A stretch of DNA of 64,000 nt, taken from NCBI GenBank assembly GCA_963703135.1, contig OY969791.1, positions 46,954 to 110,953 of the forward strand. The letters are read 5' to 3'. The position numbers and the translations under genes were made by a program. Origin of the DNA: an uncultured Solirubrobacterales bacterium. Lineage in GTDB: Bacteria; Actinomycetota; Thermoleophilia; Solirubrobacterales; Solirubrobacteraceae. Shown in pieces: positions 6,925-33,069 of this stretch; the first letter of the stretch is position 1; every line of letters starts with the position of its first letter. The notes under the pieces were generated by a model that saw only the letters and a list, made by a program, of their open reading frames with translations, searched no databases and had not been told where the DNA came from.

Positions 6925-7007
6925 GAAGGCCGGGAAAGTATCGGATCTGCCCGACGCCACGCAGTCCGGTCCGGGTCGGCGGGTCCTTGTGCAAGACTCG
7001 AAGCGCC

Positions 7008-7613
7008 ATGACGGTCAACCTGACGCGCATCTACACCAAGCTCGGAGACGGCGGCCAGACGCACCTGGGAGACATGAGCCGCGTCTCCAAGCTGCATCCT
7101 CGCGTGGAGGCCTATGGGACCGTGGATGAGCTCAACGCGACGATCGGCCTGGCCCTGCTCGCGCCCGGCATGCCCGGGCGCTTCGTCGAGTGGCTCGAGC
7201 GCGTCCAGAACGATTTGCTCGACGTGGGCGCCGACCTGTCGGTGCCGGGTCCCGCCGAGGAGGAGCCCGACCAGACGCGCAAGGGCCAGCAGCGCCTGCG
7301 CGTCGGCCCCGAGTACGCGGCCTGGTTGGAGCAGGTCTGCGACGAGGTCAACGCGACGCTCGCTCCTCTGCGCTCGTTCGTGATCCCCGGAGGCACGCCT
7401 GCCTCCGCCCACCTGCACATCTGCCGCACCGTCTGTCGCCGCGCCGAGCGTCGCGCGATCGCCGTTGAGGACTGCAACCCGGAGACGATCCGCTATTTGA
7501 ATCGACTGTCGGACATGCTTTTCATCCTCTCCCGCGCCGCGCGTGAGCACGAGCCGGGCTCCGAGCCACTATGGGCTCCAGGCGCGCACGGCTCCGGGCG
7601 AACGCCTTCTTAG
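7008..7613 (+). CDS. pduO: PduO-type ATP:cob(I)alamin adenosyltransferase
   Basis: MTVNLTRIYTKLGDGGQTHLGDMSRVSKLHPRVEAYGTVDELNATIGLAL.. is the N-terminal signature of PduO/MMAB-type adenosyltransferases. Start taken at the ATG at 7008. Confidence 0.85.
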   Translation: MTVNLTRIYTKLGDGGQTHLGDMSRVSKLHPRVEAYGTVDELNATIGLALLAPGMPGRFVEWLERVQNDLLDVGADLSVPGPAEEEPDQTRKGQQRLRVGPEYAAWLEQVCDEVNATLAPLRSFVIPGGTPASAHLHICRTVCRRAERRAIAVEDCNPETIRYLNRLSDMLFILSRAAREHEPGSEPLWAPGAHGSGRTPS

Positions 7614-8279
7614 ACCCGCGGTCCTGGGCCCGAGCGCGTCGCCGTCCTGCCCCGCCGCGCGCAACGCCGCGAACGCCAAGGCCGCCCAGAACGTCGCCAG
7701 CAGATAGCCGCCCACGACATCGCTCGGCATGTGCCACGCGAGCACCAGCAAAGCGCCGCCGACCGCCAGCGCGAAGACCGCTCCGACCGCGGCCACGAAG
7801 CGGCGCTCGGTTGGCGGGGCAACCAGCAAGGCACACCAAACGAGCGTGGTCGCGGCGGTCGCGTGACCGCTCGGCCACGAAGCGTTGGCGATGTATTTCG
7901 GGCCGATCTGATCGTGATGGTGGGCCAGCAGCGGCTTCAGCAGCTCTGCGCTCAGAGGCGCCAACGGCAGCAGGATCGCGACCGCCAAGGCCACCCACGC
8001 CAGGCGACGGCGCAAAGCGATGGCGACCAAGCCGATTCCCCAGGCGGCGTAGAAGGGCGGGTAGAGCAGGTCCAGCAGAGCGTTGGCGGGCGCTTCCACG
8101 AGCGGGCGATTCAGGCGCGTGAAGTCATACAAGGCGACCGCGTCCTTGACATGGGTGATCGGCACAAGCTCGGCCAAGGTCCAGGTGATCGCCAGCCCCA
8201 CCACGCACAGCCCCGCCACGAGCAGGGCCAGCCGCGCGAGGCGACGGTCGCCGGGCGGGGCGCGCACGATCATGGACAT
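7569..8279 (-). CDS. PAP2-family membrane phosphatase
   Basis: Six hydrophobic segments plus the PAP2 motifs SWPSGHATAA and AWHMPSDVVGG. It lies 110 nt downstream of, and on the same strand as, the ECF operon. Confidence 0.75.
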   Translation of the reverse strand: MSMIVRAPPGDRRLARLALLVAGLCVVGLAITWTLAELVPITHVKDAVALYDFTRLNRPLVEAPANALLDLLYPPFYAAWGIGLVAIALRRRLAWVALAVAILLPLAPLSAELLKPLLAHHHDQIGPKYIANASWPSGHATAATTLVWCALLVAPPTERRFVAAVGAVFALAVGGALLVLAWHMPSDVVGGYLLATFWAALAFAALRAAGQDGDALGPRTAGLRRRSPGAVRAWSP

Positions 8280-8388: not shown

Positions 8389-10032
8389 TCAGGCGGGCGC
8401 GATCGGAAACGGCTTGCCCGCGAGCGCCGCGAGCGCCTCGGCGGTCACCCATACCGGCGTTTGCGCGCTGGTGCGCGAATAGCGCACGCTCCCGTCGGGG
8501 CCAGACAGGCTCTCCAGGTAGCCGATCGGCGAGCGGCTGGCGCCTCTCTTGACAGCGCTCGGGTTCACACCGGCGGCCACCAGGCCCTGGACCGCCCAGG
8601 CCGTCGACTGGGCGTTGGATTCGCCGCCCGGCTGTTGGGGAAAGCCACCGTCGGGATTCTGGGCGCGACGCAGATAGGCCACCGCGCGAGCTGTCAGCCC
8701 ACTGTTTCGCTGCCCCGTCGCTGCCACCGCGGCCTGCAATGCCGCCGCCGTGTCGTCCACGTCCTCGCTGCCCCCGCGCCCGGCGAAACCGAAGCCACCG
8801 TCGCGATCCTGCTGCACCGCCAACCATCTCCCCGCCGAGTTCACGAGCTGATTGTCCGACGCCTTGCCGGCCACACGCAAAGCGAGAATCGCAAAGGCCG
8901 TGATGTTCACCAGGTGCGCGAACGAGCCGTCGCTCGAGCGTTCGCGACGCAAATCGGCGAGCAGCCCCCCACCGCCGAAGGCCGAGGCGGGCAAGCCGCA
9001 GGCATGCAAGGCCAGGATCGTGCGCTCATAGTCCCCGGCACCTTGCAGAGTGGAGTCCTGGCCCCGCAACGCGTCGAGCACCGAGTGCCCGCCACGCTTC
9101 AAAGTCAGCGGATTGCGACCCGCGGCCGCCAAGCCGATCGCCGCCCAGGAGGAATACAGCTCGCTGCTGCGCTGCCCCTTGGCCGCACCGAAGCCGCCGT
9201 CGCCGTTCTGGGCGCCCTCCAGGTAGGCCACGCCGCGCGAGAGCGCCGAGGAAGCGGCGCGGGCCACGCCCACGCCGGTCCTCGCGGGGGCCGGTGGCAC
9301 CAAAGCCGCGGAGTTCCGTGCCCGCAAAACGGTTGCCCCACGCGCGCGCGCAGGGTGGCCGATCGCGTACATACCCCCGCCCACCAGCGCGACCACAACA
9401 AGTGCCGCCGCGGCGGGCGGACTGACCGGCTTCCACTCGACCGTCATGCGGGCCCGCACGCGACCCAGCAGCCGCGCCAGCTCGGGCCCGAAGGCGAACC
9501 CGAACAGGAAGCTCGCCACAACATCGGTTATGTCGTAAGGCAGGGATTGGCCCGCCGTCAAAAAGAAGGCGACCGGCGTGTGGCTGGCCCCCAAAGTCCA
9601 CGTGTACACGTTCATGATCTCCTTCGCCACCAAAGCCATGACCGCGCATGCCAGCGCGATCCCAAAGCGCCCCAAGCGCCTGCCGCTGAGACGCCCAAGC
9701 GCTGCGCCTGCAAGGCCCACAAGCCCCCATGCGGCCATCTGCCAAGGCGTGTAGGGCCCCTGGCCGAGCACGATGTTCGAGGCCAGCATCCCGATCGCCC
9801 CCACCGCGAAGCCCGGGATCGGCCCAAGCGCATAGCCCACGACCAAGGTCATCGCCGTGATCGGCTTCACGTCGGGCAGCGCCACGAACGCGTCGCGCCC
9901 CAGGGCCGCCACGGCCGCCAATGTGCCGACGACCGCGGTCATGCGCGCCGTAGGTCGCGAGCGCTCATAGGCCAGCCAGCCCGCGACCAGCACGCCGAAG
10001 ACGATCGCAAAGCTCGCCACGAGCCAGCTCAC
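8389..10032 (-). CDS. ECF-transporter S-component-like membrane domain fused through an extra TM helix to a prenyltransferase/squalene-cyclase-type alpha/alpha-toroid repeat domain
   Basis: The N-terminal ~200 aa contain about six helices (VASFAIVFGVLVAGWLAY, ITAMTLVVGYALGPIPGFAVGAIGMLASNIVLG, WQMAAWGLVGLAGAALG ..). A further helix AAAALVVVALVGGGMYAI follows. After it come the repeats YLEGAQNGDGGFG, WLAVQQDRDGGFGF, YLRRAQNPDGGFPQ and YLESLSGPDGSVRY. The GTG start overlaps the ecfA stop (GTGA at 10029-10032). Confidence 0.7.
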   Translation of the reverse strand: MSWLVASFAIVFGVLVAGWLAYERSRPTARMTAVVGTLAAVAALGRDAFVALPDVKPITAMTLVVGYALGPIPGFAVGAIGMLASNIVLGQGPYTPWQMAAWGLVGLAGAALGRLSGRRLGRFGIALACAVMALVAKEIMNVYTWTLGASHTPVAFFLTAGQSLPYDITDVVASFLFGFAFGPELARLLGRVRARMTVEWKPVSPPAAAALVVVALVGGGMYAIGHPARARGATVLRARNSAALVPPAPARTGVGVARAASSALSRGVAYLEGAQNGDGGFGAAKGQRSSELYSSWAAIGLAAAGRNPLTLKRGGHSVLDALRGQDSTLQGAGDYERTILALHACGLPASAFGGGGLLADLRRERSSDGSFAHLVNITAFAILALRVAGKASDNQLVNSAGRWLAVQQDRDGGFGFAGRGGSEDVDDTAAALQAAVAATGQRNSGLTARAVAYLRRAQNPDGGFPQQPGGESNAQSTAWAVQGLVAAGVNPSAVKRGASRSPIGYLESLSGPDGSVRYSRTSAQTPVWVTAEALAALAGKPFPIAPA

Positions 10033-11885
10033 GACACTCCTCCCTGACCGACCGCTCCCTGCCCCACCGCCGCCCTACCCACCGCCGCCTGGCCCACCGC
10101 CGCCTGGCCCACCGCCGCCTGGCCCACCGCCGCCTGGCCCACCGCTCCCAGAGGCTCGGCGCGCCCCGCTTGCGAGCGGACCGCTGTCCGTCCGCGCGCG
10201 GCCAAGACATTGGCGCCCGCCTCCGGCTCCAGCGCCTCGACTGCGCCCCCGAGAATGCGGGCGGTTTCGGTCGAGAAGTACCAGCCGCCGGCCAGTAGCT
10301 CCGCGGCCGGGCCGTCCGCGATCACGCGCCCGTCCGCCAGCAGGACGGCCCGCTCGGCGCATGCCGCCGCGAACTCGGGGTCGTGCGTGGCCACGATCAC
10401 CGCCTGACCCCCTTCGGCGCGGCGACGCAACTCGGCGGCAAGCGCCGCTTTGGCCTCGCGGTCCATGCCGCGCGTGGGCTCGTCCAAGGCCAGGACCACC
10501 GGCGCATCCTCGGCCTGCTCCGGCTCGCCCTCCGGCCCCGGCCCAGCTCCCGCCCGGGCCGCATCGCCCTCCGGCGCCACGATCGCCAAGGCCAGGCGCT
10601 GGCGCTCCCCGCCGGACAGATCCCTCGGGTTGCGCTCGCCCAAGCCTGCCAGCCCCGCGGCCGCCAACGCACCTGGCGACACTTCGTCGGCGACGCGCTC
10701 GCGCAGGAAGTAATCGTTGGGGTTCTGTAGCAGCAACGCCACCCGCCCCGCCGTATCCACCCTGCCCCGCGTGGGACCCAACAGGCCCGCCGCGTGACGC
10801 AGAAGCGTCGACTTGCCCGCCCCGTTGCGTCCCATCAAAGCGACCGTCTCGCCACCTCGCACGACCAGATCGACACCGCGCAGGATCGCCGGGCCGCGCG
10901 GAATCTCATACCAAAGCCCCCTGATCGAGAGGGGCACGCCGGTCCCTCCCCCAAACCGCAAGCCCCGGCGAGGAGCGGGCTTGGCCTCTGCACCGCGGCG
11001 GCGGGACAACAAGCCGCCCCCAGGACCAGCCGCCGCCGTCACACGCTGCGCCTCGCCCTCCAGCAGCCCGCGGGCGCGCAGCGTCGCACGAGCCTGCTTG
11101 ACGCCGACCGGGGCGGGACTCAGCCCGGACAGGGCAAACAGCTTGGCGCCGGGCGTCTGTAGCGCCGGCGCCTCGCTGCGCGCCCACTCCAAGAAGTCCT
11201 TCGGCGAACCGTCGTGCGCGACGCGACCCCCGTGCATCGCGATCGCCCGGTCGGCGGCCGCCAAGCAGCGCTCCAAGCGGTGCTCGCACAGCAGGATCGT
11301 CATGTCCCACTCCTGGTTGAGCCTGCGCAACAGCCCGATCAGCTCATCGCCCGCGACCGGGTCCAGTTGCGAGGTGGGCTCGTCGAGCAGCACCACCTTC
11401 GGGCGTCCCGCAAGCGCCGCGCCCAGCGCGACCCGCTGCTGCTCGCCACCCGAGAGCTCTTGGGTGGAGCGCTCCAGCAGACGGTCGATGCCGAGCGCCA
11501 AAGCCACCTCCTCGACCCCCCTTGCCACCATCGCCGGTGTGTGGCCCCTGTTTTCAAGCGCCAGCGCCAGCTCCGCGCGCACCGAGCCCATCACCAGCTG
11601 CGTCTCCGGGTCTTGGAACAGGGCGCCCGTCAGCGCTCCCAGGCGCGCCGGGGGATGCTCGCGCGTGTCGAGTCCCTCGACCGTCACCCTGCCCGCGAAC
11701 GAGCCGCCAAAGAAGTGCGGCGCCAGACCGCACGCCGCTCTGAGCAGCGTGGACTTGCCGTGCCCCGAGAGCCCCGCCAACACGCACATCTCCCCCGGCT
11801 CGATCGTCAAGCTCACGTCGAGCAGCGCCGGAGTCTCGGCCCCCGGGTAGGTGTAGGTGACGCGCTCGAAAGCGACCGCGCTCAC
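10029..11885 (-). CDS. ecfA: Fused double ABC ATPase of an ECF transporter (EcfA-EcfA')
   Basis: Two cassettes are present. Walker A motifs are GLSGHGKST and GRNGAGKST. Signature motifs are LSGGEQQRV and LSGGERQRL. Walker B motifs are VVLLDEP and VLALDEP. Start taken at GTG 11885 (VSAVAFERVTYTYPG, GAAGGA 4-5 nt upstream). The track ORF extends to TTG 11951. Confidence 0.88.
   Translation of the reverse strand: MSAVAFERVTYTYPGAETPALLDVSLTIEPGEMCVLAGLSGHGKSTLLRAACGLAPHFFGGSFAGRVTVEGLDTREHPPARLGALTGALFQDPETQLVMGSVRAELALALENRGHTPAMVARGVEEVALALGIDRLLERSTQELSGGEQQRVALGAALAGRPKVVLLDEPTSQLDPVAGDELIGLLRRLNQEWDMTILLCEHRLERCLAAADRAIAMHGGRVAHDGSPKDFLEWARSEAPALQTPGAKLFALSGLSPAPVGVKQARATLRARGLLEGEAQRVTAAAGPGGGLLSRRRGAEAKPAPRRGLRFGGGTGVPLSIRGLWYEIPRGPAILRGVDLVVRGGETVALMGRNGAGKSTLLRHAAGLLGPTRGRVDTAGRVALLLQNPNDYFLRERVADEVSPGALAAAGLAGLGERNPRDLSGGERQRLALAIVAPEGDAARAGAGPGPEGEPEQAEDAPVVLALDEPTRGMDREAKAALAAELRRRAEGGQAVIVATHDPEFAAACAERAVLLADGRVIADGPAAELLAGGWYFSTETARILGGAVEALEPEAGANVLAARGRTAVRSQAGRAEPLGAVGQAAVGQAAVGQAAVGQAAVGRAAVGQGAVGQGGVS
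10048..10152 (-). repeat. 15-bp in-frame tandem repeat (4 perfect and about 3 degenerate copies of CCCACCGCCGCCTGG on the + strand) encoding (AAVGQ)n at the EcfA C-terminus
   Basis: Perfect copies at 10078-10092, 10093-10107, 10108-10122 and 10123-10137. Degenerate copies flank them. The ecfA frame translates the region as GAVGQAAVGQAAVGQAAVGQAAVGRAAVGQGAVGQGGVS. Confidence 0.95.
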
Positions 11886-11922
11886 GGGATCCTTCGATCG
11901 GATCGACCGGTTCCAGACGAGT

Positions 11923-12828
11923 TCACGGCTCGATGCCCCTGCGGTCCGCAAATGGAGCGAGGATCGCGAGCGCCAGCACCAACGCGAGCGCAGCCGTCTC
12001 GCCGGCGGCCGCCGCTTTGATTTCGGGGTAGGCCTCGAATGCGGCGAATCCCGCCAATCGCGCCGCCAGCGCGAGGGCCGCCACGGCGAGGGCCGAGGTC
12101 GCGAACGCCAGATCGTGGCGCGACCACGGGATCGGTCTGCGCTGGGCGCGTCTGCCCTCGGCGAAGCCTCGCAGCTCCAAGGTCGCCGCCACGTCCATGG
12201 CGCGGTCCAAGGAGGAGGACAAGATTGCGCTCACGAGGGTGCCCTGCGTGCGCGCGCGCGAAAGACGGCCCTCTCCGCGCGTGCGCGTGGGCCGGGTCCT
12301 CTGCGCTTCTGCGAGCCGACGCGCGTCGCCGGCCAACACGGGGACCATGCGGGTCGCCAGCGACGCCGTCAGCGCCGAGCGAAACGAGAGTCTGCGCACG
12401 CCCCGCAGCAGCTCGTCCGGATCGACCGCCAAGCTGCCCAAGGTCGTGGCCAGCATCAACAGCGACACCTTCAGCGCGATCACCACGCCATAGACGAGCG
12501 CCTCGACCGTCAAGTTTCCCTGGCCGAAAGGCCCCAAATCGCCGAGCCGCGCGAACACGGTCAAACCGTCCCGCGACACAAGCACGTTCACGACGACGAT
12601 CGGCAGCGCCACGATCGCCGCCATCCGCAGCGAGCGCAAGACCTGAGGACCCACGCCCGCCGCCGCGCCCGCTGCCACGATCGCGCCCAGCTCGGCTGCC
12701 AACACGAACGGGCTTTCGCTAGCGAGCGCGGCCACGATCAAGGCGGCTGTCCAGGCCGCTCCCACGCTCGCGCGCGTGGCGTGCAACGGGCTCGCCAAGC
12801 GCCTATAGAAGAGGGTGTCCCCGATCAC
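11923..12828 (-). CDS. ecfT: ECF transporter transmembrane (T) component, CbiQ/EcfT family
   Basis: C-terminal 302 codons of ORF 11923..13734. The protein is a multi-TM protein with LSFRSALTASLATRMVPVLAGDARRLAEAQRTR.. and SLDRAMDVAATLELRGF, typical of CbiQ/EcfT. The GTG start at 12828 overlaps the upstream stop (GTGA). The remainder of the 603-aa ORF is an out-of-frame overlap with the DUF4430 gene. Confidence 0.8.
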   Translation of the reverse strand: MIGDTLFYRRLASPLHATRASVGAAWTAALIVAALASESPFVLAAELGAIVAAGAAAGVGPQVLRSLRMAAIVALPIVVVNVLVSRDGLTVFARLGDLGPFGQGNLTVEALVYGVVIALKVSLLMLATTLGSLAVDPDELLRGVRRLSFRSALTASLATRMVPVLAGDARRLAEAQRTRPTRTRGEGRLSRARTQGTLVSAILSSSLDRAMDVAATLELRGFAEGRRAQRRPIPWSRHDLAFATSALAVAALALAARLAGFAAFEAYPEIKAAAAGETAALALVLALAILAPFADRRGIEP

Positions 12829-13766
12829 GGTGTCGGCACCGGGCGCGCCGTGCCGTCGGCTTCCAGCGCCAGCGCGAAACGGTCGTGGAGCGCCGCTTCG
12901 GAGAAAGCCGCCGCCGCGTGTTCCACCCCGTTCGCGTCGGTGCCTGTGACCACCCACAGTGGCTCCTCTTGGGCGTAGCGAGTGGCGGCCACCAGGCCCC
13001 CTCCCGCGCCCAGCGTCTTGGTCCTGTGTCCCTGCGCGTCGAGCAGGCTCAAGGAATGCCCGTCGCCCGCAAAGCGCGCATACACCCCGCTTGCGCCCGG
13101 CCCCCGCTCGATCGCCTCGCTCGCCGGCGTGGCCCTCACCGCCTGCCAAGGCCCGACCAGCACCCGCAACGTTTCCGGCTCGTCTCCCGGGCCGATCCCC
13201 GCGATCGCGGCCGGCACGCCCGCGGCACGCAGTCGGGCGACCACCGTCTGGCAGGCCTTGCCTTGCACTTCGGCGCATTCCACGCGCACCGGCAACCGCT
13301 TGCCTTCGCTGCCGTTCACGAACGGCTCCGGAAAAGACCCGACGACCGCCGGCACGTCCTCGGTTTGGCTCCAGTCGTGCAGGTCCCACCAGATGTGGTC
13401 GCCCGCGTGGACATCTGTGCCGGCCCCGCCCTTGGGCGCCTCGATCCCGTTGACGTAATAGAACCAGTCGACCGGTTCCCCTCCCTGCGTGGTGCCCGCA
13501 CGCCCGTCGATGCTCTGCACGAAGCCGCCCCCGTACCTGGTCGTGACCTGGTGGTTGCGCATCAACAGGCTCATGACCGTCTCCTGGCCGCTCACCTTCG
13601 GCGCCCCTTGGCCTCCGAGCGGCTTGGCGCCGAAGTCTTCGGTCACGCTCAGGTGGATCGCGCTCGGCGTGGCGCCCGGCCCGATCCCGCAGCCGCCGAC
13701 AGCCGCCGCCACCAGGCCGAGCGCAACCGCCCAAATCGGGCGCCTACTTGACATAAAAGACGACAT
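12825..13766 (-). CDS. Lipoprotein with an N-terminal DUF4430-like (transcobalamin beta-domain-like) module
   Basis: Signal peptide with lipobox (LGLVAAAVGGCG). The DUF4430-style block is TVMSLLMRNHQVTTRYGGGFVQSIDGRAG..VDWFYYVNGIEAPKGGAGTDVHAGDHIWWDLHDW. An alternative ATG lies at 13754. Confidence 0.7.
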   Translation of the reverse strand: MSSFMSSRRPIWAVALGLVAAAVGGCGIGPGATPSAIHLSVTEDFGAKPLGGQGAPKVSGQETVMSLLMRNHQVTTRYGGGFVQSIDGRAGTTQGGEPVDWFYYVNGIEAPKGGAGTDVHAGDHIWWDLHDWSQTEDVPAVVGSFPEPFVNGSEGKRLPVRVECAEVQGKACQTVVARLRAAGVPAAIAGIGPGDEPETLRVLVGPWQAVRATPASEAIERGPGASGVYARFAGDGHSLSLLDAQGHRTKTLGAGGGLVAATRYAQEEPLWVVTGTDANGVEHAAAAFSEAALHDRFALALEADGTARPVPTP

Positions 13767-15003
13767 GGCTCACGCCGGGGACGAGCTTGGTGAATTCTCC
13801 CGCGTCGTTGACCGCCTTGACGTCGTACACGTAGCGACCCCTCGGCAGAGCCGCCGGCAGCAGATAGCTGAACGACTCGGTGTCGCCCACCATAAAGAAC
13901 CTCTTCGTCCCGCAACGACTGGTCACAAAGCGTCCCTTCGAGCCGCTGAAGGCAAAACAGCGTTTGCCCTTACGCCGCGCCAAGCTGATCCGCACTTCCT
14001 TGAGCGAGCCGCCCGCAGGCACGCTGACCGTGCCGTTGAGGATCCTCGGGGCTTTGCGCTTGGAGTACACGCGTCCCGGCTTGATCCCCGTCACCCTCGG
14101 GTAGGAGCTGACATGCGGCAGGCGGATCGTTGGGCAGCTGGCCGAGCCGGCGGCAGCAACGGCACACTCGACCGGTGGTTTGCCGGGCCCAAGCGGTCCT
14201 CCGCACGACGCCGAAGCAGACGCGGTAGCACACGCGACCGTCGGCGCGCAGACGCCATCGTCGCCGTTATGCACGCAGATCGTCGCCTCGGTGCGCACCG
14301 CCGGTGGGCCAGTCGCGGCTCCGTTGACCCGCAGTGTGTAGGAGCCCGCACCGATGAACTTCAGTGTCGCGTGACCTTGCGAATCGGTAGTCGCTTCGGC
14401 CCCGTCCCCAACCACGCTCGCGCCGACCGCAGGCGAGGGTTCGCCCTTGGCGTTGTACTGCTTCACGCTCACCGCAGTCGCTTCGCCGACGTTGGCCGTG
14501 GTGGGCGCTTCGATCTCTAGTGGCGTGGGGTTCGGTGGGCAGGCAGAGCCTTCGCATTCGACCAAAAGCAATACGTTTGCACCGGGCGCCAGTTCGACGC
14601 CACATACTCCGTGTTCTGTTTGAAAAACGTCGTTCAACCAGAACGACCAGAAGTAGTTTGCGTTCGAACCAAGTTCGAAGGGGTGACTCTCGCCCCCGAT
14701 CATTTCGACCGAGTAGCCGACTTCATCACCAAACCACTTGCCGCCCCAATTGCCGGCAGTCGCCAGCTGTAGCGCGCCAGCGGCGCTGGTGCCCGGACAC
14801 GAGTCAGCTTCGTTGCCGTCCTTGACGACAGGCGTCGTCGTGGTAGTGACGAGCGTCGGCGGAAGCTTTGTTTCGCTTAGCCCCTCAACCCTGACGGTGA
14901 CCTGGGCGGGCATCCCGGCGGCAAGCGCGCGGGCCGGGACGAACAGACAAAAGAGCGCGACAGCGAGGACCGCCGAGCGCGAGCAAATACGAGCTTGAGA
15001 CAT
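13744..15003 (-). CDS. Secreted protein: N-terminal DUF4430-like module plus two beta-sandwich (Ig/CarboxypepD_reg-like) regions; first gene after the riboswitch
   Basis: Signal peptide SAVLAVALFCLFVPARALAA. The next block, QVTVRVEGLSET..SAAGALQLATAGNWGGKW..GYSVEMIGGES..NYFWSFWLNDVFQ..ELAPGANVLLLVEC, resembles DUF4430. The ATG at 15003 has GAAAGGGG 8 nt upstream. The track ORF begins at TTG 15012. Confidence 0.65.
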   Translation of the reverse strand: MSQARICSRSAVLAVALFCLFVPARALAAGMPAQVTVRVEGLSETKLPPTLVTTTTTPVVKDGNEADSCPGTSAAGALQLATAGNWGGKWFGDEVGYSVEMIGGESHPFELGSNANYFWSFWLNDVFQTEHGVCGVELAPGANVLLLVECEGSACPPNPTPLEIEAPTTANVGEATAVSVKQYNAKGEPSPAVGASVVGDGAEATTDSQGHATLKFIGAGSYTLRVNGAATGPPAVRTEATICVHNGDDGVCAPTVACATASASASCGGPLGPGKPPVECAVAAAGSASCPTIRLPHVSSYPRVTGIKPGRVYSKRKAPRILNGTVSVPAGGSLKEVRISLARRKGKRCFAFSGSKGRFVTSRCGTKRFFMVGDTESFSYLLPAALPRGRYVYDVKAVNDAGEFTKLVPGVSHVVFYVK

Positions 15004-15039
15004 TGCAGCCAACCCCTTTCCACGAGGGCTTTGTGGGCT

Positions 15040-15205
15040 TGTGGTCGGAGGCAGGTTTCCTGGCTCCCGGGCCTACCCTCCGCGCCTTCCCGATCCGCCG
15101 AGCGGCCGATCAGTGGCTGCGCTTGCGCGCCGCGTCTGGCATCCCCGGTCACAGTGGCGGGTCCGCGCCGGATTCGCACCGACTTCCCTTTCCACCGACC
15201 TTTGA
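15040..15205 (-). promoter_or_regulatory. Cobalamin (AdoCbl) riboswitch aptamer
   Basis: The minus-strand RNA reads GGUCGGUGGAAAGGGAAGUCGGUGCGAAUCCGGCGCGGACCCGCCACUGUGACCGGGG ... GGGAGCCAGGAAACCUGCCUCCGACC. It has the conserved GGGAA/GGUG/AAUCC/CCCGCCACUG core (+ strand 15151-15190). It has a B12-box-like AGCCAGGAAACCUGCC (+ strand 15050-15065). The closing helix is GGUCGG/CCGACC. A downstream CCCU..AGGG pairing could mask the SD of the first gene. Confidence 0.85.
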
Positions 15206-15265
15206 ACGCCCGTCATCCTACACCCGCGCGCGGCCGTCGCGCCCCTGAGAGCCGGGAGCGCTTGG

Positions 15266-16522
15266 CTACAGCGTTCCGAGGTCTGCGTCGAGACTCACAA
15301 GCACGGCGCGCTGCTCCTCGTCAAGCGTCGTGCGGGCCTTGATCAAACGGCGCGCATGGTCCAGATCATCGGAGCGCCCAAACGTGAGCGCCGCGCGCAC
15401 GCGTCCCTGCTGTAGATAGAAGGTCGTGAACTTGCCCTCCTCGTAGGAGCCGCGCACGAGCTCCTCGTCCCACTCGTAGGCGGGACCCACGTACTCCAGC
15501 TCGCCCCAATCGCCGAGCACCGAATAAAAATAGGGGACGACCTCGTGGGGCACGTCTCCGCCGAGCATGTTCAAAGCGGCGGTCTTGCCGTGGTTGAAGG
15601 CCACGTCCCAGTGCTCGATGCGCACATGAGTGTCGTGTATCGGCGAGTCGTACTCGGCGATGTCCCCGGCCGCGAAAATCCCCGGCGCCGAGGTCTCAAG
15701 GCGCGAGGAGCAGACCACGCCGCCCCGCTCGCCGATCTCAAGACCGGCGCGCTTGGCCAAGGCCACGTCCGGCGTGACGCCGGCGCCCACGACCACCGCT
15801 TCGGCCGGCAGTTCCAGGCCGGCGCTCGTCACGACCTTGCCCACGCGCCCCTCCCGGCCGGGGCGCTCCTCAGCCTCGAAGCGCTCGAGCTCGTCGGAGC
15901 CGATCACCTCGATTCCATGCGATTCGAGCAGTCCTTGAAAGAAGCGTCCCGCGCGCTTGCCGAAACCTCGTTCCAAGGTCGCCTGCTCCTGCATCACGAT
16001 CGTCGCCCGCTTGCCCATCAAGGTCAGCGAGGCGGCGACCTCGCAGCCGATGTAGGAGCCGCCGATCAGCACCACCCGCTCGGCGTCGGCGACACCCTCG
16101 CGGATCGCATCGGCGTTGCCGAGCGTGCGCAGGTAGTGGATCTGATCTAGCTCGCAGCCAGGCACGTTCAGGCGGCGCACATTGGCCCCGGTCGCGATCA
16201 AGGCCTTCTCGAAGCGCAATTCCTGCTTGTCGGAGAGCTTGACCGTGCGCGACTCCAAGTCCAAGGACATCGCGCTCGTGCGCCTCAGCAGCTCGACTTT
16301 CTGCTCTGCCCACCAGTCCTCGGGTCTGAACAGCGGCTCCTCGCGACTCTCCTCGCCGCGCAGATAGCCCTTCGAGCACTCCGGCCGGTTGTACGGCGAG
16401 TCGGGCTCGCGTCCCACGAGCACGATCTCCCCCTCGGCGCCGGACTCTCGCAGCCAGCGCGCGCAGTTGGCCGACGCCAAGCCGCCACCGATCAGCAGAA
16501 ACTCCACCTCGCGCGTGCTCAT
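15266..16522 (-). CDS. FAD/NAD(P)-dependent oxidoreductase, ferredoxin-reductase (pyridine nucleotide-disulfide oxidoreductase) family
   Basis: MSTREVEFLLIGGGLASANCARWLRESG (FAD fold), VVLIGGSYIGCEVAASL (NAD fold) and GIFAAGDIAEY are present. ATG at 16522. The gene starts 14 nt after the stop of the CwlT-like gene. Confidence 0.85.
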   Translation of the reverse strand: MSTREVEFLLIGGGLASANCARWLRESGAEGEIVLVGREPDSPYNRPECSKGYLRGEESREEPLFRPEDWWAEQKVELLRRTSAMSLDLESRTVKLSDKQELRFEKALIATGANVRRLNVPGCELDQIHYLRTLGNADAIREGVADAERVVLIGGSYIGCEVAASLTLMGKRATIVMQEQATLERGFGKRAGRFFQGLLESHGIEVIGSDELERFEAEERPGREGRVGKVVTSAGLELPAEAVVVGAGVTPDVALAKRAGLEIGERGGVVCSSRLETSAPGIFAAGDIAEYDSPIHDTHVRIEHWDVAFNHGKTAALNMLGGDVPHEVVPYFYSVLGDWGELEYVGPAYEWDEELVRGSYEEGKFTTFYLQQGRVRAALTFGRSDDLDHARRLIKARTTLDEEQRAVLVSLDADLGTL

Positions 16523-16536
16523 TCTTGATTGCCACC

Positions 16537-17763
16537 TTACAACCCCGGCGGATGCCTGACCGACCAGTGCGCCCAAGTCGGGATGCGATCCAAGATGCGC
16601 CAGCGGGGTCCGTCTTGGTCGCGATTGGGCCCCACGTCGGTGCCGTTGTGGGAGGTGTCCAAGCGCAGGCCCGCGATAGTCATGAACACGTGGGCCGTGG
16701 GAGCGTCGGTGGCGTAGATCGTGACCCAGCGGCCGGGCCCCGGCGCACCCCAGTGCACGTAGTCCTGGGCCAGCGGGTTCTCACGCAAAATTTCTCCGAT
16801 CGGGCGCACCCCTGAGCGGTACAGCACGAAGTTGACGGTGCTCGAGCAGTCCTCGTCCAGGGCGCCCCTCGGGTCTGGATGGCCGTCGGGCCCATACGGC
16901 AGTTCCTGTAGCTCGTTACCCGCGATCACCATCGCCTGCACGACACTCGGCGCACCTTCGGGCACGAGCGCCACATGGCCGTCGCCGGGCGAGAGCACCG
17001 CTTGTTCGCCCGCCGTGAACTGAACGTCGCCCACGCCGGGCCATTCGCCGATCGACACTTCCCGCCCGGACGTCGTGCCGAGGGGCGCGGATCCTCGGTA
17101 CAGCGAGGCCCAATGCTCGACCTCCTGCACGTACCAATTCGCGTGGTTGTAGGCGAATATCGCCTGCTTGTAGTCGCCCGGCGCACCCGCGGCGCGCAGA
17201 TAGTTGGCCATCGAGAAGATCGCGTCGGCCGCGTCCCAGCGATCGGCCCGCCCGTCGCCGTCGCCGTCCACCCCGTACTCCCGCCAGGTCGAAGCCAGGA
17301 ACTGAGCGGGCCCGCCCGCGCCGGCCGAGTTGACCGCACCCTCCCTGGTGCAGGACGGATCGGGGTCGCGCCCGTGGTCGCACTCCACCTTGCCGATCCC
17401 GGCCAAGATCGCCCAGTCCAAGCCGTAGCGCCGCGCCGCTTCGGTGTAGAGCCTCAGGTATTCGGGTGGGATTTCCGCGCGCGCCCTGGCCGAGGGCCCA
17501 TATTCGCCGCCGCTGCCGCCCCGCGATTCCGTCGTGAGTCCGACGGTCACACCGACCATCGCGGCGCTTGCGATCAAAACGACCAAGCCCACGCCCACAA
17601 CGATCAGCAACCCCAGGACGAGACGCGCACCGAGACCGTGCCACGTGCGCTGCGAGCCCCGTCCCCGGGAACCGCGCACGCCCGGCTCGAGGATCGCCCC
17701 GGCATTCACTCGGACGCTCCCGGCTCTCGCGGCTTCCCCGGCCCTCGCGAATGCGTCTCCCAC
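16537..17763 (-). CDS. Two-domain cell-wall hydrolase (lytic transglycosylase/SLT-like plus NlpC/P60-like), CwlT/TcpG/VirB1 analogue
   Basis: N-terminal membrane anchor LVLGLLIVVGVGLVVLIASAAMV. The SLT-like block is YGLDWAILAGIGKVECDHG..AGGPAQFLASTWREYG..YNHANWYV. The C-terminal DEDCSSTVNFVLYRSG..AHVFMTIAG provides a Cys/His pair. Start uncertain, as the ORF overlaps the upstream gene by 58 nt. Confidence 0.75.
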   Translation of the reverse strand: MGDAFARAGEAARAGSVRVNAGAILEPGVRGSRGRGSQRTWHGLGARLVLGLLIVVGVGLVVLIASAAMVGVTVGLTTESRGGSGGEYGPSARARAEIPPEYLRLYTEAARRYGLDWAILAGIGKVECDHGRDPDPSCTREGAVNSAGAGGPAQFLASTWREYGVDGDGDGRADRWDAADAIFSMANYLRAAGAPGDYKQAIFAYNHANWYVQEVEHWASLYRGSAPLGTTSGREVSIGEWPGVGDVQFTAGEQAVLSPGDGHVALVPEGAPSVVQAMVIAGNELQELPYGPDGHPDPRGALDEDCSSTVNFVLYRSGVRPIGEILRENPLAQDYVHWGAPGPGRWVTIYATDAPTAHVFMTIAGLRLDTSHNGTDVGPNRDQDGPRWRILDRIPTWAHWSVRHPPGL

Positions 17764-32995: not shown

Positions 32996-33069
32996 TCGGG
33001 GCGGCCGGATTTGAACCGGCGACCCCCTGCTCCCAAAGCAGGTGCGCTACCAAGCTGCGCCACGCCCCG
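32996..33069 (-). tRNA. tRNA-Pro (anticodon UGG)
   Basis: The minus strand reads CGGGGCG TG GCGC AGCTTGGTA GCGC A CCTGC TTTGGGA GCAGG GGGTC GCCGG TTCAAAT CCGGC CGCCCCG A. This is a full cloverleaf of 74 nt with anticodon TGG. No CCA is encoded. Confidence 0.93.

Follow-up and report, generated by a model that had tools for sequence, protein, structure and literature searches.

A 64,000-nt stretch of DNA from a soil actinobacterium (the window) carries an operon, controlled by a riboswitch, that probably encodes a dedicated ECF importer of the group-I style, with cobalamin or another corrinoid as substrate and with an extracytoplasmic capture layer. Directly downstream of the riboswitch lie five co-directional genes on the minus strand, with overlapping or near-abutting junctions. 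Their order is g1, g2, EcfT, a fused EcfA-A' and g5, a fusion of an S-component and a toroid. The reading as a corrinoid ECF importer, already proposed in a first-pass annotation of this DNA, is supported by the riboswitch, the complete T/A-A'/S module and an S-component that, among solved structures, matches CbrT only. It is further backed by the recurrence of the riboswitch at related loci, by riboswitch-led pairs of g1-like and toroid genes and by an adjoining PduO-type gene.

The cobalamin riboswitch proved genuine. Its aptamer (RF00174; 15033..15218, minus strand), which has a P6 extension, was found in an Rfam search of the window with 81.0 bits (E 2.3e-18; gathering score 31.5), the match spanning the whole model, positions 1-189. 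Alignment to the RF00174 consensus accommodates all elements quoted earlier, i.e., the core GGGAA..GGUG..AAUCC..CCCGCCACUG, the B12 box GAGCCAGGAAACCUGCC and the helix GGUCGG/CCGACC, which is P1. When tested with Rfam, nine of nine related loci contained RF00174 aptamers at 64-89 bits, and nhmmer detected the aptamer in 70 of the 70 related loci that extend far enough upstream. About 15 nt upstream of P1, the hexamer TAGGAT (15215..15220, minus strand) resembles a -10 element; nearly all 70 related loci have a TAnnnT element (TAGGAT, TAGTAT, TAACAT) at the same position, between variable flanks. This hexamer is a putative promoter element, and transcription would probably start at this conserved -10 element, immediately 5' of the aptamer.

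The expression platform AGCCCACAAAGCCCUCGUGGAAAGGGGUUGGCUGCAAUG (15001..15042, minus strand) contains the Shine–Dalgarno (SD) sequence GGAAAGGGG at 15013-15021 and ends with the ATG start codon of g1 at 15001-15003. This stretch of about 45 nt is almost invariant across 70 genomes. No terminator was found when the interval from aptamer to start codon was searched, and the expression platform alone does not fold better than shuffled sequence (z 0.51). As there is no terminator and the SD-bearing stretch is invariant, ligand binding most likely masks the SD. Control of the operon would then take place at the level of translation, the riboswitch turning the importer operon off once coenzyme B12 suffices. 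The SD could be masked by a local hairpin, with CCCU/AGGG or AGCC/GGCU pairing, or else by the usual kissing loop between L5 (CCC) and L13.

Within the operon, g1 and g2 overlap by 23 nt, and the g2/EcfT and EcfA-A'/g5 junctions each consist of a GTGA overlap. At the EcfT/EcfA-A' junction, the choice of start codon decides between a 37-nt gap and a 29-nt overlap. The overlaps would translationally couple the downstream genes. Six genes had been counted initially, but the range 8389-15205 holds five; the sixth co-directional gene, encoding a PAP2-family membrane phosphatase (7569..8279, minus strand; PF01569, 47 bits), falls outside it, 109 nt 3' of g5. This gene is syntenic in most of 80 loci and absent from the split operon of one relative (L081), and its membership of the operon is uncertain. 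Convergent with it, and overlapping at the 3' ends, is the gene of a PduO-type ATP:cob(I)alamin adenosyltransferase (6987..7613, plus strand; PF01923, 199.6 bits, E 5e-59), a neighbour outside the operon that occurs at the same place in 75 of the 80 loci. Gene order is kept in every complete locus among the 80 Solirubrobacterales genomes; since all comparative evidence comes from this one order, synteny by itself counts for little as independent evidence.

The ECF core is complete. EcfT, the transmembrane coupling subunit (11923..12828, minus strand), belongs to the CbiQ family (PF02361, 66.8 bits) and starts with a GTG that overlaps the stop codon of g2. The fused EcfA-EcfA' ATPase (10029..11885 or 10029-11951, minus strand) has two ABC_tran domains and scores 245 and 237 bits against the ECF ATPase models TIGR04520 and TIGR04521, so that both assignments made in the first-pass annotation hold. 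A GTG start at 11885 is preceded by the SD sequence GAAGGA, with the reading frame open up to 11951, and the C-terminal tail is encoded by a 15-nt tandem repeat (10042-10149). The third component is g5 (8389-10032, minus strand), which combines an S-domain with a toroid of the Prenyltrans/SQHop_cyclase type. The claimed S-component fusion stands by virtue of homology to CbrT, although not by the Pfam route: all S-component matches of g5 remain under their gathering scores, and a family profile is therefore required to show the homology. Among 177,635 PDB sequences, the profile of the S-domain (residues 1-196; 9445..10032, minus strand) has 6fnp_A, the CbrT chain of ECF-CbrT, as its sole match (E 1.8e-11, 164 residues aligned; identity of 6FNP taken from PMC5997447). 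The S-domain carries one additional N-terminal helix.

These data bear on the substrate. Conceivably the system imports heme or another non-corrin tetrapyrrole, the transcobalamin-like accessory proteins scavenging that molecule, as proposed for the similarly built lsa1836-1840 system of Lactobacillus sakei, whose deletion is reported to change the heme content of the mutant (bioRxiv 10.1101/864751). We consider this very improbable, given that, at all related loci examined, a cobalamin riboswitch precedes the operon, that the only solved relative of the S-domain is a B12 S-component, that a cobalamin adenosyltransferase gene adjoins the operon, and that neither a gene nor a regulator related to heme showed up beside it.

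The S-fold of g5 is followed by a seventh helix (residues 208-223) and a disordered, Arg-rich linker (224-259; together 9256..9411, minus strand), both delineated in the AF2 model, in which the linker has a pLDDT below 50. Charge and hydropathy counts give six Arg and no acidic residues in the linker after helix 7, an unusual composition for a segment outside the cell. The subsequent alpha/alpha-toroid domain (residues 260-547; 8389..9255, minus strand; PF00432, 50 bits) is modelled with pLDDT mostly above 90, and 80-89 in a few 10-residue blocks. It is predicted to be extracytoplasmic, and its stand-alone orthologues have RR-type signal peptides.

By sequence and structure, the toroid best matches drimenyl diphosphate synthase, small squalene-hopene-cyclase-like proteins, MstE and prenyltransferase beta subunits; in Foldseek, the top ranks go to class II terpene cyclases of the monodomain type and to prenyltransferase beta subunits. 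The domain could thus be an exported enzyme rather than a binder. Working on the external side of the membrane, it might use polyprenyl (di)phosphates as a monodomain class II terpene cyclase or as a prenyltransferase-like catalyst, perhaps together with PAP2, whose gene is downstream in most loci. The sequence DVDDTA at residues 424-429 corresponds to the class II cyclase motif DxDDTA and is invariant in one alignment (A1). However, DxDD[TS] is kept in only 55 of 150 family representatives, and riboswitch-linked orthologues have GIDDTA (L081) or GIDETA (L082). PAP2, moreover, is missing from the split operon. To our knowledge, terpene cyclases have no link to B12. The toroid is fused to or encoded beside a B12-type ECF system with DUF4430 proteins, and a cobalamin riboswitch precedes it even at loci lacking a neighbouring transporter. 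A catalytic role is, all in all, distinctly unlikely.

The split and stand-alone relatives tie the accessory proteins to B12 in their own right. In L081, the g1-like protein, toroid, DUF4430 protein, T, AA' and S-component (216 aa) are all encoded by separate genes behind RF00174. Two metagenome contigs (L082 and L083) have RF00174 before g1-like and toroid genes only, with no ECF genes adjacent. As the two gene pairs are near-identical, they effectively count as one independent case; a riboswitch before these genes, with no transporter adjacent, nevertheless links the accessory proteins themselves to B12.

Both remaining proteins are exported. The lipoprotein g2 (313 aa; 12825..13766, minus strand) has a lipobox Cys within L-A-G-C-G-L-G, which is kept in most of the homologues listed, a DUF4430 domain at residues 62-130 (13377-13583, minus strand; PF14478, 47.1 bits, E 3e-12, cutoff 23.8 bits) and a C-terminal domain to which no type was assigned. 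The secreted g1 (419 aa; 13744..15003, minus strand; AF2 pLDDT 83.5) consists of a signal peptide (residues 1-30), a divergent DUF4430-like domain (34-151; 14551-14904, minus strand), an Ig-like domain (160-245), a Cys-rich disordered linker (254-298) and a C-terminal beta-sandwich (301-419). The DUF4430 block of g1, a putative assignment, finds its support at the family level only: 43 of 68 homologues match PF14478, and hhalign aligns the g1 profile (92-146) onto that of g2 (76-127) with E 8.4e-5 but a probability of only 60%. The initial description of two signal-peptide proteins with DUF4430-like blocks is accordingly correct for export and for g2, while g1 of the window does not reach the Pfam thresholds for DUF4430. 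The proposed kinship of DUF4430 to the transcobalamin beta domain was borne out, since PF14478 lands on the beta domain of human transcobalamin (residues 334-406; sequence identity verified against PDB 7qbf_A; see also PMC4350170).

Across genomes, g1 varies much more than its operon neighbours (31-76% identity, vs. 56-93% for g2) and is mosaic between near-identical genomes, and operons differ in having two or three DUF4430 paralogues. Together with the g1-like and toroid pairs lacking an adjacent transporter, this variability would fit exported proteins that do another B12-linked job at the surface while the ECF core imports corrinoids, without delivering substrate to it. Corrinoid hoarding or competition, cell-wall retention, ligand removal or exchange, or a role as variable surface proteins under phage or other selection are examples. 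We regard this as unlikely. Hundreds of genomes have toroid and S-component covalently joined, an arrangement for which direct hand-off is the simplest explanation, and the tight overlapping junctions argue for a stoichiometric complex and against non-delivery.

In the favoured reading, that of a corrinoid importer with an outside capture layer, EcfT and the fused EcfA-A' would form the motor, and the CbrT-like S-domain would move the corrinoid across the membrane. Three parts would be located outside: the toroid, tethered to the S-domain via the extra helix and a flexible linker of about 35 residues, the g2 lipoprotein and the secreted DUF4430-Ig protein g1. The DUF4430 domains, possibly with the toroid, would catch scarce corrinoid and pass it to the S-domain, and the neighbouring PduO enzyme would adenosylate it after import. 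The term capture protein is thus a predicted role; a literature search found no binding measurements on bacterial DUF4430 or toroid proteins. ECF S-components normally bind their substrate themselves, without a binding protein, and are thought to topple within the membrane; the compatibility of toppling with a tethered 290-residue domain is not obvious.

Tethering itself is known from the type I ABC importers GlnPQ and OpuA, in which substrate-binding domains are fused to the membrane subunit. The concept is alike, as an extracytoplasmic binding domain is joined in cis to the translocating subunit, but the transporter class is unrelated and the tethered domain has a different fold. The eukaryotic carriers transcobalamin, intrinsic factor and haptocorrin combine a DUF4430 beta domain, as in g2 and the g1 family, with an alpha domain that is an alpha/alpha toroid, the fold class of the g5 C-terminus. 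Here, in contrast, the halves are on separate polypeptides, the toroid is membrane-tethered and corrinoid binding is putative. The likeness of the toroid to the alpha domain is not supported beyond fold class: PF01122 is not matched, hhalign gives E values of only 0.085-0.23, and the alpha domain is absent from the Foldseek top 50. For g2, the profile did not reach transcobalamin or intrinsic factor among PDB sequences, and hhalign against human transcobalamin was not significant.

Among the closest characterized systems is ECF-CbrT of Lactobacillus delbrueckii (PDB 6FNP), for which transport of cobalamin and cobinamide was shown experimentally (Santos et al., 2018; PMC5997447). Both systems have a homologous S-component, an EcfT and EcfA/A' motor and a pduO neighbour, the present locus echoing the nrdJ-cbrS-cbrT-pduO cluster, in which the function of cbrS is not stated (PMC5997447). 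Unlike CbrT, whose module is shared between S-components, the present operon encodes its own ECF module, with A and A' fused, extra N- and C-terminal helices and a 290-residue toroid on the S-component, two co-encoded DUF4430 proteins and an RF00174 riboswitch, whereas the CbrT paper mentions no riboswitch (PMC5997447).

By description, the same parts list occurs in the "ECF-like" lsa1836-1840 system of L. sakei, where secreted transcobalamin beta-like and alpha-like (toroid) proteins accompany an S-component, T and a fused AA' (Verplaetse et al., bioRxiv 10.1101/864751). The toroid protein resembles geranylgeranyltransferase and the transcobalamin alpha domain by HHpred, and the authors, who assign the system to heme and report no riboswitch, propose that the extracellular proteins feed the ECF S-component (bioRxiv 10.1101/864751). 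The L. sakei toroid is a protein of its own, as in L081, whereas the present one shares a polypeptide with the S-component, and the present operon adds a second, larger DUF4430-Ig protein. An ECF system with a putative SBP-like layer would depart from the textbook, but its presentation as unheard-of was overstated, as precedents exist; a database annotation already reads [quoted passage not shown]. The design of riboswitch, ECF importer and exported transcobalamin-related proteins is real and rarely studied, with published precedents, and its apparent novelty lies in the toroid-S fusion and the additional DUF4430 paralogue.

The locus is securely identified as a CbrT-type ECF importer operon headed by a cobalamin riboswitch, with exported DUF4430 proteins and an S-component fused to a toroid domain; its substrate is most likely a corrinoid. 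The first-pass annotation had proposed a riboswitch-led importer operon with exported proteins, and this description stands with small corrections to the gene count and to g1. The riboswitch itself (RF00174, 15033-15218, minus strand) is the sole one found by Rfam. Its alignment spans the full model (positions 1-189 of 189) and reaches 81.0 bits, with E 2.3e-18 and a gathering threshold of 31.5 bits, which bears out its earlier assignment. The core, GGGAA..GGUGCGAAUCC..CCCGCCACUG, and the B12 box GAGCCAGGAAACCUGCC match the consensus with high posterior probability, and the core motifs, B12 box and GGUCGG/CCGACC closing helix that had been recognized by eye all lie within the alignment. RF00174 is found upstream of g1 in six out of six diverse loci, and an nhmmer profile detects the riboswitch in all 70 loci whose sequence covers the upstream region.

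A transcription-terminator model of the switch is rejected, as the stretch that separates the aptamer from the start codon has no terminator. In 70 genomes, hardly any change is seen in the 45 nt that run from the P1 end up to the ATG and contain the Shine–Dalgarno (SD) sequence GGAAAGGGG, whereas the adjoining coding sequence diverges. The missing terminator and this near-invariant platform together make translational control the likely mode of the switch. Three pairings could possibly mask the SD: the CCCU/AGGG pairing proposed at first reading, an AGCC/GGCU hairpin showing GGGG in its loop, and a kissing loop between GGGG and the CCC of L5. Since the platform does not vary, covariation cannot pick among them, and the isolated platform folds no better than shuffled sequence, its stability not being unusual. 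At the 5′ end, a -10-like hexamer, TAGGAT (15215-15220, minus strand), is seen by eye in the aligned loci. Nearly all of the 70 related loci have a TAnnnT here, with the same spacing of ~15 nt upstream of P1. A scan for the sigma-70 consensus found no promoter; the conserved element is the probable -10 box, so that the first ~10 nt of the Rfam match would probably be promoter rather than RNA. Directly upstream of this promoter lies a gene for a ferredoxin-NAD(+) reductase-like flavoprotein (15266-16576, minus strand), which is syntenic in most related loci.

The genes behind the riboswitch are tightly packed on the minus strand, in a window with a G+C content of 67.6%. The secreted protein g1 (13744-15003) overlaps the lipoprotein g2 (12825-13766) by 23 nt, and GTGA overlaps join g2 to EcfT (11923-12828) and the fused EcfA-A′ to g5 (8389-10032). 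The ORF of EcfA-A′ starts at 11951, with an alternative GTG at 11885 that has a good Shine–Dalgarno sequence upstream. A co-directional run of six genes had been claimed; the run is there, but the count is not, as five genes lie inside the range assigned to it and a gene for a PAP2-family membrane phosphatase (7569-8279, minus strand) lies beyond it, 109 nt past g5. The PAP2 gene trails the operon in most Solirubrobacterales loci (80 genomes). Convergent with it, with a 3′ overlap of ~45 nt, is a gene for a PduO-type ATP:cob(I)alamin adenosyltransferase (6987-7613, plus strand; PF01923, E 5e-59), which occupies this position in 75 of the 80 related loci. A tRNA gene elsewhere in the window (32996-33069, minus strand; RF00005, 67 bits) has no relation to the operon. 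Across the 80 Solirubrobacterales genomes, every contig long enough to show it has the gene order g1, g2, T, AA′, S-toroid. The scan of the genome collection gave Solirubrobacterales alone, because the peptide patterns used were lineage-specific, and looking up the clusters of distant representatives yielded hardly any names, so that the gene-context evidence is from this order.

The EcfT, fused EcfA-A′ and S-component that had been claimed are all borne out. EcfT matches PF02361 (CbiQ family) with 66.8 bits (cutoff 25). EcfA-A′ contains two ABC_tran stretches and scores 245 bits with TIGR04520 and 237 bits with TIGR04521, both under the equivalog cutoffs, a result that a fused protein would be expected to give. 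Its C-terminus is an AVGQA-type repeat tail, encoded by a 15-nt tandem repeat of 7.2 copies (10042-10149, minus strand) directly before the start of the S-component; the alignment with the near-identical genome L034 is also broken in this region. As a single sequence, the S-component of g5 gives Pfam scores of 23 and 20 bits, both under the cutoffs. A profile of 27 S-domains has a single match in the whole PDB, 6FNP chain A (E 1.8e-11, 164 residues), which is ECF-CbrT, an experimentally characterized transporter of B12 and cobinamide (PMC5997447). We infer from this homology that the S-domain of g5 is of the CbrT type; given the riboswitch and the gene context, its substrate would be a corrinoid.

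Both exported proteins had been described as carrying DUF4430-like blocks behind a signal peptide. For g2 this holds, with a PF14478 (DUF4430) score of 47.1 bits against a gathering score of 23.8, and its lipobox cysteine, Cys27, is kept in most of the homologues listed. For g1 it holds at the level of the family: the protein of the window has a signal peptide but itself gives no PF14478 match, whereas 43 of 68 homologues do. In a profile-profile comparison, g1 residues 92-146 align on the DUF4430 core of g2 with an E of 8.4e-5, at an hhalign probability of only 60%. The confident AF2 model of g1 (pLDDT 83.5) has an N-terminal domain followed by an Ig-like domain, then a disordered linker rich in Cys, and ends in a beta-sandwich. 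Foldseek with the whole model returns just generic Ig/FN3 tandem matches and is therefore uninformative on the N-terminal domain.

The kinship of DUF4430 to the transcobalamin beta domain, stated in the first-pass annotation, is confirmed on human transcobalamin-2 (the sequence used is identical to PDB 7qbf_A), in which PF01122 covers residues 1-305 and PF14478 residues 334-406, the latter with 25.0 bits. This agrees with the literature (PMC4350170). Neither single-sequence searches of the PDB, by g1 or by g2, nor one with a profile of g2 turned up a meaningful match, and the g2 profile against human transcobalamin was not significant.

The two exported proteins vary to a different extent, with identities across the 80 genomes of 31-76% for g1 vs 56-93% for g2. 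Within g1, the stretch 14083-14745 (residues about 87-307) has no blastn match in L034; the flanks of this stretch have 92-95% DNA identity, and the DUF4430-like core (residues 91-150) is only 47% identical. Such a mosaic pattern suggests diversifying selection or allele exchange acting on a surface protein. Moreover, g1 and g2 are separated by an additional gene in the related locus L031 (5385-6356, plus strand) and in about 10 more loci (L039, L042, L044, L047, L054, L062, L064, L067, L076 and L080). By eye, it encodes a signal peptide, a third DUF4430-like domain and an Ig-like domain; operons thus carry two or three DUF4430 paralogues, depending on the genome.

Past the S-fold, g5 continues with an additional helix at residues 208-223, which a disordered linker joins to an alpha/alpha toroid (260-547), modelled with a pLDDT mostly above 90 and of 80-89 in a few blocks. 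The toroid matches PF00432 with 50 bits and has an alpha/alpha fold with PFTB-type repeats. In a 90% clustered database, 5,691 relatives of the fusion protein reach E ≤1e-5, the best being from named Solirubrobacteraceae; a 50% identity library has 5,786 matching clusters, which include both full-length fusions and toroid-only proteins. Membership of NCBIfam NF053823 (SCO2321 family membrane protein) is rejected, the score of 88.6 bits being below the cutoff of 300 and due to the toroid repeats alone. No match to the toroid was found by tblastn in 72,556 plasmids.

As to its location, the Arg-rich loops of g5 alternate as expected for an S-fold that ends in the cytoplasm, like known S-components, in which case the extra helix would place the toroid outside the cell. 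Two stand-alone toroid orthologues start with RR-type signal peptides, which supports an extracytoplasmic location, although the linker after helix 7 of g5 is Arg-rich, in mild conflict with it. That this exported layer would capture corrinoid outside the cell is a well-supported inference.

A minor alternative is that the toroid is an enzyme, resembling a class II terpene cyclase or a prenyltransferase. Its best matches in sequence and structure are indeed class II terpene cyclases and prenyltransferase beta subunits (in Foldseek, 8paj/8pak match at E 1e-7, and target-normalised TM-scores go up to 0.62), and residues 424-429 read DVDDTA (8761-8778), identical to the catalytic DxDDTA of squalene-hopene cyclases. 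This motif is invariant among close relatives, but DxDD[TS] is present in just 55 of 150 family representatives, the central Asp being kept in about 84%, and riboswitch-linked orthologues have GIDDTA (L081, a relative with unfused toroid and S-component) or GIDETA (L082, a metagenome contig). Moreover, instead of isoprenoid-pathway genes, the toroid is accompanied by a B12 riboswitch, ECF and DUF4430 genes, PAP2 being the sole possible isoprenoid link at the operon.

Among the related loci, L081 is an informative exception to the conserved arrangement. Behind RF00174, it has separate genes for a g1-like protein, a 320-aa toroid, DUF4430, CbiQ, AA′ and a 216-aa S-component; one lineage thus has toroid and S-component as a fusion and another has them apart. 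Two metagenome contigs, L082 (6690-8915) and L083 (925-3150), have RF00174 followed by a g1-like gene and a toroid gene with an 11-nt overlap, and no ECF genes near these pairs. The pairs are near-identical and therefore count as one independent case. Their place behind RF00174 indicates that the accessory proteins are themselves under B12 control. Next to the pair are copper- and iron-related genes in L082; in L083 it is a Zn/Mn ABC system with Fur.

The toroid is not classed as a homologue of the transcobalamin alpha domain: it does not match PF01122 up to E 10, its hhalign E-values against human transcobalamin (0.23 and 0.085) are not significant, and the alpha domain is absent from its Foldseek top 50. 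'Alpha-like' is therefore taken as shared fold class only. A tentative, rather improbable extension of corrinoid capture is that the toroid might pair with a DUF4430 protein, g1 or g2, to enclose the corrinoid, as a two-piece bacterial 'transcobalamin' tied in cis to an ECF transporter. The closure would be like that made by the two domains, alpha and beta, of transcobalamin, intrinsic factor or haptocorrin. If true, this would be an ECF importer depending on an extracytoplasmic binding module and would offer a living model of what the bacterial ancestor of animal B12 carriers was like, of which the g1-like/toroid pair with its own riboswitch (L082/L083) would be the minimal version. The family is the only bacterial place with the transcobalamin beta-domain fold beside an alpha/alpha toroid under B12 control, a pairing that bears on the origin of those carriers. 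A natural fusion, a natural split form and a stand-alone two-gene module give clean experimental handles.

ECF transporters are taught as ABC importers that do not need a binding protein. A capture layer outside the cell on a B12 ECF transporter, partly fused to the S-component, would qualify this rule, and the tethered domain would raise a mechanical question for an S-component that topples. No biochemical study of a bacterial DUF4430 member was found in the searched papers that mention DUF4430, nor one of the accessory proteins of the fusion family, and the prenyltransferase-like fusion goes unmentioned in a survey published in 2024 on the S-component fold. The idea of feeding an ECF transporter from outside is not new. 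A nrdJ-cbrS-cbrT-pduO cluster is noted in the CbrT paper (PMC5997447). One precedent source places a DUF4430 protein beside the gene of a B12-dependent ribonucleotide reductase in L. rhamnosus, and the origin of the annotations cbrS and 'additional lipoprotein' is taken from secondary mentions. In L. sakei, lsa1836-1840 encodes an S-component, a fused AA′, T and two secreted transcobalamin beta-/alpha-like proteins, which Verplaetse et al. propose to feed the S-component with heme as substrate (bioRxiv 10.1101/864751). The likeness to the operon described here is in the parts list with its secreted proteins, whereas the proposed substrate is heme there and a corrinoid in our reading. New here, in a known but barely studied kind of system, are the fused toroid-S architecture and the extra DUF4430-Ig paralogue.
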